Source: Clostridia bacterium
GTDB lineage: Bacteria; Bacillota; Clostridia; UMGS1883; UMGS1540
Length of the DNA stretch: 64,000 nt
NCBI GenBank assembly: GCA_045590195.1
Contig: JAZNQN010000044.1
Location: 19,186 to 83,185 of the forward strand
Direction of reading: 5' to 3'
The notes beneath the pieces were generated by a model. The model was given only the letters and a program-made list of their open reading frames with translations. It had not been told where the DNA came from and made no database searches. A program made the position numbers and the translations under genes. This document shows positions 1 through 2,443 of this stretch, one piece after another (position 1 is the first letter of the stretch; every line of letters starts with the position of its first letter).

Positions 1-495
1 GATGAAGAACAAAACAAGCTCTACATCAGAACAAACATATACAGAGATAACGGAGAATTAAAAGAAGGTAAACCTAAAACGGACGAGGGCGAAAGATGCA
101 TCATACTGCCAAAGGCAACTGCGGATATGTTAAAACAGCGAAGGCGGATATCAAAATGGATATTCCCGAACCTGACAACTCCTGGATTACCCATAGCACC
201 GGAGGCAGCCTACAGAAAAGCAAAACTGATTCTAAAAAGTCTGAATCTGCCGAACATATCCTTCCATGACCTACGACACACCTTCGCAACACATGCCATA
301 GCAAGCGGTGTAGATGCAAAAACACTATCAACGATACTTGGACATACAAACCCAAGCTTCACCCTCGACACATACACACATGTAACAACAGATATGCAAC
401 AAAAAGCATCAAATATAATAGAAATCTTTATGGAAGATATACTCGGAAAGGAGATGAAACCATGGCAAGACGAAAAAGCGGACAAGGAACAGTAA
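1..495 (+). CDS. Tyrosine site-specific recombinase (phage/ICE-type integrase), C-terminal portion. The 5' end is cut by the window edge.
   Basis: The frame is open from nt 1 with no start codon in the window. The C-terminal catalytic region carries the motifs HDLRHTFATHAIASG...LGH and a terminal Tyr-containing segment. It is paralogous to the next ORF. Confidence 0.8.
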   Translation, partial: DEEQNKLYIRTNIYRDNGELKEGKPKTDEGERCIILPKATADMLKQRRRISKWIFPNLTTPGLPIAPEAAYRKAKLILKSLNLPNISFHDLRHTFATHAIASGVDAKTLSTILGHTNPSFTLDTYTHVTTDMQQKASNIIEIFMEDILGKEMKPWQDEKADKEQ

Positions 496-1889
496 GACTC
501 AGAAAAGATGGTCGATGGGAAGGCAGAATTGTAATCGGTTACGATGAAAATGGTCTTCCTAAGACAAAAAATGTAACAGCCAAGACAAAAACGGAATGTA
601 TTGAGAAGCTGGAAAAGCTCAAAGATGAAACAGGTTTTATCCGCAGAGAAAAAGTGCATAGCAGAATGACCTTCGGTGAATGGATGGACTTCTGGTATCA
701 GAATTACTGCAAAATGCGAATAAAGGAATCAACTCAAGAGGGCTATGAAACAAGAATATATAATCATATAATCCCCAAGATAGGAAAAATTCCCCTAAAT
801 GAATTGACTCAAAATGACCTGCAGAAATTCTACAACAGCCTTAAACAAGACGGCAGACTGAGATATCGGGATACGCTCGGCGAAGGACTGTCCGACAGGT
901 TCGTGCGAAGCTGCCATGCAAACTGCAGAACTGCACTTCAAAAGGCAACGGATGACAGACTTATAAAAAAGAATCCTGCAATAGGCTGCAAGATACCACC
1001 TAAAAAGTCAAGAGAGATGCAGGTGCTGACGCCGGATGAAATTAAAAGGTTTCTTATACAAGCAAAATATGACGGATTCTTCGAAATCTTCTTAGTAGCC
1101 TTATCTACAGGCTTACGGCGAGGAGAAGATATGGCACTAAAATGGGAAGACTTAAACCTCGATACAGGAGAACTAAAGGTGCGAAGACAAGTCAAACGGA
1201 CAAAAGGCAGATTGGTCATAACAGAGCCAAAGACAGAAGAATCGGTAAGAACGATAATACTACCCAAAAGCCTTGTAAACATCCTGAAGGAATATAAGGA
1301 AACAATAGACTCAGAGTGGATGTTCCCATCACCAAAAGTTGAAGGGATGCCAAGAGATCCCTCAGCAGTATATGGAATGATGCAGGTAATATTAGAAAGA
1401 GCAGAATGTAAAAAGCTTCGATTCCACGATCTCCGCCACACCTTCGCAACCACATCGGTAGCAAACGGAATGGACATCAAAACCTTATCCACCATCCTCG
1501 GACATGTATCAAGCAAAACAACACTTGATATATACCTGCACAGCACCGAGGAAATGAAGAAAGAAGCGGCTGAAAAGATTAACGCCCGATTCAACAAGGA
1601 TACAAACGGTAGCGAAGAAACAATCACAGAAGAACAAGAGAAGCCTCCGCAAGCCAAATTTGAGCCTAAAAAGGGCAAGATGAGAAAGCCCGGCACAGGA
1701 TGCATCAGTAAGATAAACGACCACCTATACGAAGGAAGATACTCGCCAAAGGATGACTACGGCAAACGAATGGCAAGAAACATATATGCACCGACAAGAG
1801 AAGAATGTGAAGAAAAGCTCGGCATACTGATAAAGGAAATGAAAGCCGAAATCGCAGAACAAAAAGCAAAGCTCAAAAATGCAAAATAA
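462..1889 (+). CDS. Tyrosine integrase of the Tn916-Int type, with an AP2-like arm-binding domain at the N-terminus and a second related copy at the C-terminus
   Basis: 475 aa. The N-terminus (RKDGRWEGR...TKTECIEKL) resembles the Tn916 Int arm-binding fold. The catalytic box is R...HDLRHTFAT...LGH...Y. A C-terminal extension repeats the N-terminal pattern (YEGRYSPKDDYGKR...TREECEEKL). Confidence 0.85.
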   Translation: MARRKSGQGTVRLRKDGRWEGRIVIGYDENGLPKTKNVTAKTKTECIEKLEKLKDETGFIRREKVHSRMTFGEWMDFWYQNYCKMRIKESTQEGYETRIYNHIIPKIGKIPLNELTQNDLQKFYNSLKQDGRLRYRDTLGEGLSDRFVRSCHANCRTALQKATDDRLIKKNPAIGCKIPPKKSREMQVLTPDEIKRFLIQAKYDGFFEIFLVALSTGLRRGEDMALKWEDLNLDTGELKVRRQVKRTKGRLVITEPKTEESVRTIILPKSLVNILKEYKETIDSEWMFPSPKVEGMPRDPSAVYGMMQVILERAECKKLRFHDLRHTFATTSVANGMDIKTLSTILGHVSSKTTLDIYLHSTEEMKKEAAEKINARFNKDTNGSEETITEEQEKPPQAKFEPKKGKMRKPGTGCISKINDHLYEGRYSPKDDYGKRMARNIYAPTREECEEKLGILIKEMKAEIAEQKAKLKNAK

Positions 1890-1894
1890 CACAA

Positions 1895-1932
1895 ATGGCA
1901 CGGACATAAAAAAATCCGTGCCATAGCTTTTG
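1895..1932 (+). terminator. Rho-independent terminator after the integrase
   Basis: Hairpin ATGGCACGGA...TCCGTGCCAT (10-bp stem) followed by AGCTTTTGG. Confidence 0.5.
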
Positions 1933-1999
1933 GTGTATTAAATTTTGATACGCCTTAAACAAAGAAAAAGACTTTGTCCCACAGTTGAAGATGAAAAAA

Positions 2000-2009
2000 T
2001 GTGGTCAAA
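2000..2009. repeat. TGTGGTCAAA motif, copy 1 of 3. The other copies are in the palindrome at 2201-2231.
   Basis: Exact 10-mer shared with 2204-2213 and, inverted, with 2219-2228. It sits between the integrase and the tRNA 3' end. Confidence 0.5.
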
Positions 2010-2033
2010 CTCGTTTTTTTGACATTTTTTTAG

Positions 2034-2073
2034 ACAAATCAAAAACCTCAGAAACCGCTTGGTTACTGAGGTT
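2034..2073 (-). terminator. Terminator of tRNA-Pro, read on the minus strand
   Basis: Hairpin AACCTCAG...CTGAGGTT lies directly 3' of the tRNA. On the minus strand it is followed by TTTTGATTTG. Confidence 0.5.
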
Positions 2074-2078
2074 TAAGG

Positions 2079-2155
2079 TGGTCGGGATGACAGGATTTGA
2101 ACCTGCGGCCTCTTCGTCCCGAACGAAGCGCGCTACCAAACTGCGCTACATCCCG
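2079..2155 (-). tRNA. tRNA-Pro (anticodon CGG)
   Basis: 77 nt including the 3' CCA. The acceptor stem is CGGGATG/CATCCCG, the D-arm GCGC/GCGC, the anticodon stem CTTCG/CGAAG, the anticodon loop TTCGGGA and the T-arm GCAGG-TTCAAAT-CCTGT. The cloverleaf was folded by hand. Confidence 0.85.
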
Positions 2156-2200
2156 ATATAAAATATTTGGTTTTTTCTATATTCCCGTATCTGTGGGATA

Positions 2201-2231
2201 ACATGTGGTCAAAACTTATTTGACCACATGT
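2201..2231. repeat. Perfect palindrome ACATGTGGTCAAA-ACTTA-TTTGACCACATGT (13-bp arms). It carries two inverted copies of the TGTGGTCAAA motif.
   Basis: The inverted repeat was read directly. It lies about 50 nt upstream of the tRNA-Pro 5' end. Confidence 0.6.
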
Positions 2232-2317
2232 ATTTTGTTTTTTTAGTCACCGTAAAGTGGCATTGTTAAAAGGTTTGCGGGAGTTCGGCTGATTACTAAT
2301 GAATTGAATAGTACCGT

Positions 2318-2357
2318 GTCCCGAACGATGCGCGCTACCAAACTGCGCTACACCCCG
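2318..2357 (-). repeat. Partial copy of the tRNA-Pro 5' half, from the anticodon stem to the 5' end. It is not a complete tRNA.
   Basis: 38 of 40 nt match tRNA positions 2116-2155. No T-arm or acceptor 3' strand is found downstream. Confidence 0.7.
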
Positions 2358-2443
2358 TAACAACCTAAATTATTATAGCACAGAGAATACATAAAGTCAA
2401 ATATTTTTTTAAAGGTGCAACAATTTGTTGCACCTTTAATCAG

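Follow-up and report, generated by a model that had tools for sequence, protein, structure and literature searches.

Tyrosine integrases are the main markers by which mobile DNA is found and classified, and the textbook enzyme has a single arm-binding domain, at its N terminus. The integrases of Tn916 and Tn1549 use many AT-rich targets, with heteroduplex coupling sequences, and not a tRNA gene, and the proteins of Tn554 measure about 361, 630 and 125 amino acids (aa) in gene order. Here we describe a locus at the left edge of a 64,000-nucleotide (nt) stretch of DNA from a Clostridia bacterium (GenBank assembly GCA_045590195.1, contig JAZNQN010000044.1, positions 19,186 to 83,185; the window hereafter), in which two tyrosine recombinase genes, Int1 and Int2, lie beside a tRNA-Pro(CGG) gene. 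On balance, window positions 1-2360 are probably the right part of a small block of mobile DNA found in gut Clostridia, a stripped-down member of a large family whose elements target tRNA-Pro, and Int1 and Int2 would act jointly in it. Integrative elements that encode tyrosine recombinases and sit at a tRNA gene are a known kind; what is unusual is the duplicated terminal domain of Int2 and the tRNA-replacement geometry.

Tn554, GInt, RIT and the strand-biased circularizing elements use several tyrosine recombinases, Tn554 combining one ordinary and one large recombinase with TnpC (PMC10214605); a title cited in PMC8138268 states that three gene products are required for Tn554 transposition. 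The locus in the window shares with these elements the presence of more than one tyrosine-recombinase gene, operon-like overlap and site-selective insertion. It is set apart from Tn554, GInt and RIT, as these are described, by having two genes and not three, by the lack of a TnpC-, srap- or ginD-like partner, by end repeats that are direct and not inverted, by an N-terminal extra domain on both proteins and by its tRNA-gene target. An earlier reading made from the letters of the window (the sequence-only reading) had likened the pair to Tn554; the likeness holds for organisation and goes no further.

As in the heterobivalent integrases of lambda, Tn916 and Tn1549, a small domain, predicted to be of sheet/helix type and N-terminal, precedes a SAM-like core-binding domain and a catalytic domain with the full RKHRH-Y set, and in relatives of the locus repeated candidate accessory motifs lie about 100-250 nt to each side of the crossover, much like the sites of a lambda-type attP. 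Unlike the situation in lambda and Tn916, Int2 has a second small domain at its C terminus, two paralogous integrases are paired and no Pfam arm-binding match is obtained. The locus also departs from the IntTn916 subgroup in its site, close relatives standing beside tRNA-Pro(CGG) and more distant ones splitting the anticodon loop of tRNA-Pro. Among PDB entries, Int2 matched archaeal XerA (E 2.4e-14) slightly better than Tn1549 Int (E 1.3e-12, residues 140-372); the label Tn916-type of the sequence-only reading is weak.

The shared block and its 35-nt repeats

About two dozen genomes, from more than 20 species and several genera (Congzhengia, Ructibacterium, Candidatus Ornithomonoglobus, Ruminococcus and other Clostridia), carry copies that are 93-95.5% identical in DNA sequence to window positions 1-1970. 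In more than 20 species the module together with its tRNA block is 93-95% identical. The host DNA flanking the shared block is unrelated between genomes or about 72% identical; for the loci L011 and L068 the element is 89% identical, against 72-73% for the host flank. Many contigs break within the Int1/Int2 pair. The Int2 family is very common in animal and human gut metagenomes, where it is annotated merely as 'site-specific integrase': one cluster formed at 90% identity (P0111, 61% identical to the window protein) has 11,520 member sequences and another has 1,967. In literature on paired or tandem integrases at tRNA-Pro, of which our coverage was incomplete, no description of the family was found.

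The extent of the module is given by imperfect 35-nt direct repeats. In the reference locus L068 the shared block starts at about position 3925 with one such repeat, followed by a 185-aa open reading frame (ORF), Int1, Int2, a hairpin and a second direct copy of the repeat; the 185-aa product has a Flg_new repeat (Pfam). Repeats with a consensus of roughly ATAT(C/T)AAA(A/T)T(A/T)TGATAC-NNNNN-AA(A/T/C)CAAAGAAAAG bound the integrase module at both ends in nine loci, spaced 3.5-3.8 kb apart, and in the more distant L002 the homologous repeats are 2.9 kb apart. They are non-tRNA sequence, and the right copy, at 1935-1970, is the sole match of its kind in the 64-kb window. To the left of the left repeat, different DNA with host genes is reached within 0.1-1 kb in each locus (purC, purF and DAP dehydrogenase in L007; rpmA in L002), and to the right of the right repeat similarity is lost immediately past CAAAGAAAAG in 11 loci. 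The module is 3.5 kb in close relatives and the window holds its right-hand 1.97 kb, so the 'element body' that the sequence-only reading placed to the left amounts to about 1.6 kb. In close relatives this consists of what remains of Int1, a single small ORF and one 35-nt repeat, after which host genes follow, and a large body in that direction is not borne out.

At the outer repeat edges the copies from different genomes cease to match, and differing small cargo genes sit there. Eleven close relatives have 0.4-2.2 kb of unrelated cargo between the integrase module and the tRNA, and similarity between these cargo-bearing relatives and the window breaks off at 1968-1975. The cargo includes a TetR regulator with a putative CDF transporter (assigned from sequence), a metallophosphatase similar to PDC-S60, a candidate defence protein, as well as a nuclease-like product and numerous unknowns. 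In a relative with 82% identity, an ORF of 1,122 aa without a PADLOC match (L013:1256-4624) lies between the Flg_new-like ORF and Int1, which indicates that cargo can also sit inside the repeat-bounded unit. Just outside the left repeat of L007, positions 3860-3925 hold the last ~20 codons of an S-layer-homology-type gene and a terminator, with no gene body; this remnant hints that the left junction has suffered a deletion or was rearranged at an earlier time.

The tRNA-Pro junction and larger relatives

Every close relative with downstream sequence stands beside tRNA-Pro(CGG), and in cargo-free relatives similarity to the window runs through this tRNA and ends at 2356-2360; the following 9.6 kb of the window matches none of 90 loci. 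The end point coincides with a displaced tRNA-Pro 5' half, cut just after the anticodon loop and lying 160 nt upstream of the intact tRNA-Pro, which marks the right junction of the shared DNA. The sequence-only reading had overlooked this half and the three copies of TGTGGTCAAA described below. Such 5' stumps occur in nearly all loci, in 0-3 copies with a period of about 200 nt. Neighbouring stump units are 86-94% identical and hence not fresh duplications; the identity between stump and adjacent intact tRNA is 83% in L002, 80% in L013 and 84% in L007.

The geometry is most complete in L084, the 15.9-kb virome contig MT835887, whose Int2 is 55% identical to that of the window. Here a 13-kb element, with a MobL relaxase adjoining the integrase pair, lies between two halves of a tRNA-Pro(CGG), the 5' half at 2273-2310 and the 3' half at 15537-15583. 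The halves share GGTTCGGGA and when rejoined give a perfect 76-nt tRNA-Pro(CGG). The DNA between them contains a spacer, an intact tRNA-Pro(AGG), the integrase pair, the MobL relaxase and further genes, and three homologous copies of the repeat mark off an integrase module of 9.5 kb and an additional module of 3.2 kb. Scanning metagenomes with the window's spacer motif recovered two distal element ends with a tRNA 3' half, L091 and L088. Base by base, L091 reads cargo, TTTGACCACATGTTATCCCACAG, about 115 nt, GTTCGGGAC with the tRNA 3' half, and host DNA; in L088 the same motif lies about 130 nt from the tRNA 3' half. L091 also has two 35-nt-type sites flanking an ATPase gene, and replication-like genes. 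From the split halves of L084 and the distal ends of L091 and L088 we conclude that the family inserts in the tRNA-Pro anticodon loop and brings a whole replacement tRNA-Pro, and by analogy with L084 the intact tRNA-Pro(CGG) of the window is probably element-borne.

The edge of mobile DNA seen at tRNA-Pro in the sequence-only reading is therefore upheld, as integrase-encoding DNA shared between species adjoins this gene. The proposed integration at the tRNA's 3' end is not supported: close relatives have no left tRNA repeat, 11 of them have cargo between integrase and tRNA, the shared DNA passes through the tRNA, the displaced piece is a 5' half upstream of it, and L084 and L091 show anticodon-loop insertion. 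A tRNA gene split by a group I intron was rejected as an explanation of the fragment, since the tRNA downstream is intact and tRNA was the sole Rfam match. The contig MT835887 is one of three human faecal virome records labelled 'Bacteriophage sp.' that contain the integrase pair (MT839022, MT839295 and MT835887; L082-L084), of which L082 and L084 have tRNA-Pro genes and tRNA fragments. No phage structural genes were recognised among the ORFs listed for L084, and the three records look like bacterial integrative elements or chromosomal carry-over in virome preparations.

In the Islander collection of 3,919 islands, a crossover centred on the anticodon loop is the commonest class (2,083 islands) and displaced 5' fragments are rare (159 islands) (PMC4383910). 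The Int1/Int2 family shares both features. It differs from these islands, which restore the split gene, in carrying a whole tRNA-Pro gene and not just the missing half, even another isoacceptor (AGG replacing CGG in L084), so that both halves of the host gene are displaced, and in having stump arrays with a period of about 200 nt; complete tRNA carriage, the other isoacceptor and the stump arrays are all unusual. The fragment and the intact tRNA of the window enclose 162 nt without genes, and since the integrases lie outside that interval the Islander configuration rule, which asks for an intact tDNA and a cognate fragment of like orientation around an integrase gene, would not call an island. 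The split halves in L084 do enclose the integrases. In pairing a MobL-family relaxase with its integrases, the distant L084 resembles the integrative mobilizable elements of Firmicutes, and no relaxase is present in the 3.5-kb module of close relatives. The subtype found in the window has lost the relaxase and replication genes and keeps two integrases, the Flg_new-repeat ORF and a variable cargo slot. A tyrosine recombinase beside a site with differing small gene modules also recalls integrons, as a functional analogy only: an IntI-type insertion and attC hairpins are lacking, 35-nt direct repeats form the module boundaries, and any exchange of the modules is putative.

The region around the tRNA contains candidate control and recombination sites. 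Three copies of TGTGGTCAAA are present in the window, all at 2000-2228 (0.18 expected), and two of them form a 13-bp palindrome. In relatives TGTGGTCAAA lies on both sides of the crossover sequence, on both arms as arm-type sites would be, which makes it a candidate for such a site; a TGTGGTCAAA-like match to the left of the L013 module falls inside the 1,122-aa ORF and was taken as chance. The palindrome, at 2201-2231, is perfect and followed by a T-rich run, a scan scoring it as terminator-like on the + strand, and its layout is that of a recombinase core site or operator. The sigma-70-type promoter predicted at 2372-2400, upstream of the tRNA 5' half, is the sole match in 1850-2460, and no comparable promoter precedes the intact tRNA-Pro within that interval; it is taken as a host promoter that the stump has retained. 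The stump may be expressed, and transcription of the intact tRNA may rely on read-through from the stump.

The recombinase pair and the second terminal domain of Int2

Both products match the Pfam Phage_integrase model (Int1 fragment, E 9.5e-16; Int2, E 5.8e-26), and Int2 also matches Phage_int_SAM_3, a SAM-like core-binding domain. The Int1 fragment retains the HxxR, H and Y catalytic motifs and shows 85% identity to residues 284-447 of the complete L002 Int1 (447 aa). In Int2, residues R219, K257, H322, R325, H348 and Y358 are invariant among 40 homologues. By these motifs Int1 and Int2 are assigned to the tyrosine recombinase superfamily. Three statements of the sequence-only reading about the pair were confirmed: the genes overlap head-to-tail, by 34 nt and in different reading frames according to the ORF list, an arrangement conserved in relatives; the catalytic regions are those of paralogues, 42% identical across 150 aa (E 1e-36); and the pair ends close to the 3' end of tRNA-Pro(CGG), 190 nt from the Int2 stop (ARAGORN, Rfam).

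Scanning one genome per species gave 79 loci with Int2 homologues. Where the upstream flank is long enough, nearly all loci have an Int1 homologue (about 386-447 aa in the family) directly 5' of the Int2 homologue and usually overlapping it, and this holds across Int2 identities of 50-97%. Given enough flank there are exactly two recombinase genes per locus and never three, apart from a few loci in which an Int1 homologue was not seen (e.g. L029-L032, L039, L054). No conserved small third gene was seen after the pair in the examined loci.

Homologues of 720-789 aa are in-frame fusions of Int1 and Int2, and the idea that they join Int2 to a third integrase, which would have explained the C-terminal domain described below, was rejected as all of them proved to be of this type. 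These proteins (P0013, P0016, P0018 and P0043) may be due to frameshifts in sequencing, to genuine fusion or to programmed frameshifting within the A-rich overlap (GACGAAAAAGCGG), which in the window lies at 462-495. The single integrase of L078 (1502-2911) resembles Int1 over residues 63-423 (78% identity), aligns with Int2 as well, over residues 3-474, and may be an Int1/Int2 hybrid formed by recombination between the paralogues. In the Int1 of L002 (2251-3594), an excisionase-like HTH_17 domain at the N terminus replaces the first strand of the small domain. L091 has a separate HTH_17 gene (1451-1804), several kb from the distal end, with a product that is 74% identical, which suggests that a deletion joined the two in L002.

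The same domain pattern appears at both termini of Int2. By BLASTP, residues 4-50 align with residues about 405-450 (38% identity, E 2e-6), and family profiles of the two ends align in hhalign with 97.8-98.0% probability (E 7e-13 and 1.5e-13, the latter over 56 columns). The AlphaFold model of the full-length protein predicts strands at 9-13, 19-27 and 33-40 and a helix at 43-56 for the N-terminal end, and strands at 414-419, 422-427 and 439-443 and a helix at 446-474 for the C-terminal end, the latter connected with the catalytic domain through a tether of about 35 residues and low confidence. Modelled in isolation, the C-terminal piece again gives strand-strand-strand-helix, with a pLDDT of about 81.

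A search of 5.8 billion proteins scored at least 7,999 Int2 homologues. The best 120 of these have, for the most part, lengths of 470-500 aa and align with the query over its full length, and because they span the whole of Int2 the C-terminal extension is a family trait. Across 113 aligned homologues the C-terminal 65 residues match the N-terminal domain in conservation, and residues about 377-410 are variable. The C-terminal copy has 15 invariant columns among 28 sequences and is kept in members with only 50-60% identity, and its conservation speaks for a function. Among 1.84 billion cluster representatives its profile matched 1,425, of which 689 had E 1e-10 or better; no link to other integrase families appeared, the best 150 of the 1,425 all being fragments of the same family. 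PDB sequence searches with a profile of either terminal domain returned noise only, and Foldseek against the PDB returned nothing below E 0.19.

As no curated model matches, the label 'arm-binding' for the terminal domains rests on their predicted topology and their position before the core-binding domain; the name is reasonable but not proven. The domain search suggested in the sequence-only reading gave no match, and no left tRNA attachment repeat was found in close relatives, two outcomes that formally go against that reading, yet the duplication itself survives the stronger tests of BLASTP, profile alignment and shared predicted topology. The claim that a C-terminal repeat is new among described integrases agrees with one survey of tyrosine recombinases. 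Smyshlyaev et al. (PMC8138268) describe arm-binding domains as N-terminal additions, and extras at the C terminus are confined in their survey to a RitC helix and a lambda Int strand. A C-terminal copy of the N-terminal domain is absent from that survey, and we found no description of one. The copy probably arose by partial tandem duplication of the 5' end of an integrase gene, fused in frame.

Table 1. Positions of annotated features in the left part of the window.
Feature	Position	Strand	Basis and remarks
Int1, C-terminal 164 residues	1..495	+	ORF list, Pfam; truncated by window edge
Int2, complete 475-aa tyrosine recombinase	462..1889	+	ORF list, Pfam, homologues
Int2 N-terminal three-strand-plus-helix domain, residues 1-56	462..629	+	AlphaFold, conservation; arm-binding position
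Int2 tether, residues about 377-410, predicted disordered	1590..1691	+	pLDDT 26-41, low conservation
Int2 C-terminal three-strand-plus-helix copy, residues 411-475	1692..1886	+	BLASTP, profiles, AlphaFold
Terminator-like GC-rich hairpin after Int2 stop	1895..1924		Conserved in all relatives
Right copy of 35-nt imperfect direct repeat, GTATTAAATTTTGATAC-NNNNN-AAACAAAGAAAAAG	1935..1970	+	Comparison of loci
TTTGACCACA-type motif, candidate accessory site	1997..2009	-	Left edge of conserved tRNA-proximal block
Hairpin directly 3' of tRNA, tRNA terminator	2043..2074	-	Follows the tRNA gene
Complete tRNA-Pro(CGG)	2079..2155	-	ARAGORN, Rfam; inside DNA shared between species
CTGTGGGATA and perfect palindrome ACATGTGGTCAAA-N5-TTTGACCACATGT	2191..2231		Motif comparison
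Displaced tRNA-Pro 5' half, 95% identical to first 40 nt of intact gene	2318..2357	-	Ends at GTTCGGGAC
Promoter TTGACT-17-TATAAT, 11/12, with TG	2372..2400	-	Predicted; upstream of 5' half

The first host gene to the right of the block (2444-4204, - strand) encodes a 586-aa protein with an S-layer homology domain and a full serpin domain (Pfam Serpin, E 1e-83), and is followed at 4319-5677 by an HtrA-type protease with a PDZ domain. To our knowledge, a cell-surface serpin beside a protease is an uncommon pairing in bacteria.

Alternative readings and meaning

How such an element might work can be outlined from these comparisons. Because Int1 and Int2 are strictly paired and have overlapping reading frames, they would form a heteromeric recombinase. 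Their three arm-type domains would read accessory sites, the 35-nt repeats and TGTGGTCAAA, around the crossover GTTCGGGAC, and the tethered C-terminal domain of Int2 would provide a second, long-reach DNA contact that bridges two sites. The 35-nt repeats would also serve as breakpoints for the gain and loss of modules and cargo. The simplest reading has two layers, insertion in the anticodon loop that leaves stumps behind, and gain or loss of modules at the 35-nt repeats; we infer both the sequence that is cut and the protein that cuts it. A bolder version, in which a three-armed Int1/Int2 machine inserts in the anticodon loop of tRNA-Pro, delivers a replacement tRNA, leaves a 200-nt stump per cycle of integration and excision and also exchanges cargo at the 35-nt repeats, is doubtful.

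Several results weigh against a small mobile block that targets tRNA-Pro. The whole analysis is computational. Neither an empty site nor a circular junction was found, and exact-sequence look-ups with Int2 and two right-flank proteins returned no record and hence no strain-level empty site. A tRNA-Pro 3' half or distal arm was found at the left end of none of the window-type loci when 22 tRNA-Pro queries were compared with every left flank. In L019 the module lies downstream of a native tRNA-Ser/tRNA-Pro pair and has no stump, and in L085 a stump, spacer and tRNA are present, the available 215 nt of sequence downstream containing no integrase; these arrangements indicate that stump and integrase module may have separate histories. 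A third 35-nt repeat, thought to lie beside the tRNA hairpin of the window, was dropped as 205 of 1000 shuffles gave an equally good match. The arm-binding models of Pfam and NCBIfam miss both ends of Int2, with the pieces scanned alone and E values up to 10 admitted.

Some of these results would be expected if the block were immobile, an old vertically inherited remnant at the clade's single tRNA-Pro(CGG) locus, with its recombinases repurposed or its sequence kept alike between species by homologous recombination. The tRNA 3' half and distal arm of complete relatives are missing at its left end, and it always sits at a tRNA-Pro(CGG) gene, with no empty site or circle found. Immobility is nonetheless unlikely given a DNA identity of 93-95% across genera where the flanking host genes are about 72% identical or undetectable, module boundaries that are identical amid unrelated flanks on both sides, variable cargo next to near-identical integrases, and contigs that break at the element as multi-copy or polymorphic DNA would. 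A model in line with the sequence-only reading, a large island or conjugative element of the conventional sort, integrated where the host tRNA-Pro has its 3' end, with the integrase pair at the tRNA-proximal edge, its cargo to the left and a 3'-end repeat at the far end, gains from an integrase that faces the tRNA 3' end at 190 nt and from the size of distant relatives (13 kb with a MobL relaxase in L084; replication-like genes and an HTH_17 gene in L091). It is very improbable for the window: relatives of more than 93% DNA identity in which the left flank is present have about 1.6 kb more, then a 35-nt repeat and host genes, and a tRNA 3' fragment occurs in none of the left flanks. Moreover, similarity between genomes passes through the tRNA to 2357-2360, the displaced piece is an upstream 5' half, and the crossover in L084 is in the anticodon loop of a different tRNA-Pro and not at the 3' end of the adjacent tRNA.

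Alternatively, TnpA/TnpB-like recombinases of a Tn554-type transposon could transpose the unit to a preferred site without involvement of the tRNA. The adjacent tyrosine-recombinase genes, the second of them larger, would fit such a transposon, and the short variable centre of the end repeats recalls the 6-bp footprints of Tn554 and strand-biased circularizing elements (PMC10214605). We give this almost no weight, since there is no TnpC-like third gene, the second protein has 475 aa and not about 630, the ends are direct and not inverted repeats, and the unit stands beside tRNA-Pro in every close relative with downstream sequence; TnpA, in addition, is a simple recombinase without an arm-binding domain (PMC8138268), and both Int1 and Int2 have an N-terminal extra domain. 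A further alternative concerns the C-terminal domain of Int2, which could be a leftover, the N-terminal part of a third integrase that once stood in tandem and was lost, joined in frame and with no role of its own. It does resemble an integrase N terminus, its variable, disordered tether looks like a former intergenic or overlap region, and genes of this locus overlap and fuse readily, as the Int1-Int2 fusions on record attest. A relic would decay, however, and this domain is as conserved as the N-terminal one, with 15 invariant positions, and this across homologues down to 50-60% identity; an Int2-Int3 intermediate was not found, all long homologues being Int1-Int2 fusions. We consider this origin quite improbable.

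Should the three-armed machine with both activities exist after all, it would amount to an integron-like cargo platform on a tRNA-replacing element widespread in gut Clostridia. If the C-terminal domain of Int2 binds DNA, it would alter how the recombination complex is assembled or regulated, and would represent a natural design for bridging extra sites. Island finders that seek a restored tRNA and one displaced fragment will mis-place or miss such elements, and a tRNA-Pro reported as the target may actually be cargo. For the gut Clostridia themselves, the variable slot beside near-identical integrases could move small accessory or defence-like genes among species of this group.

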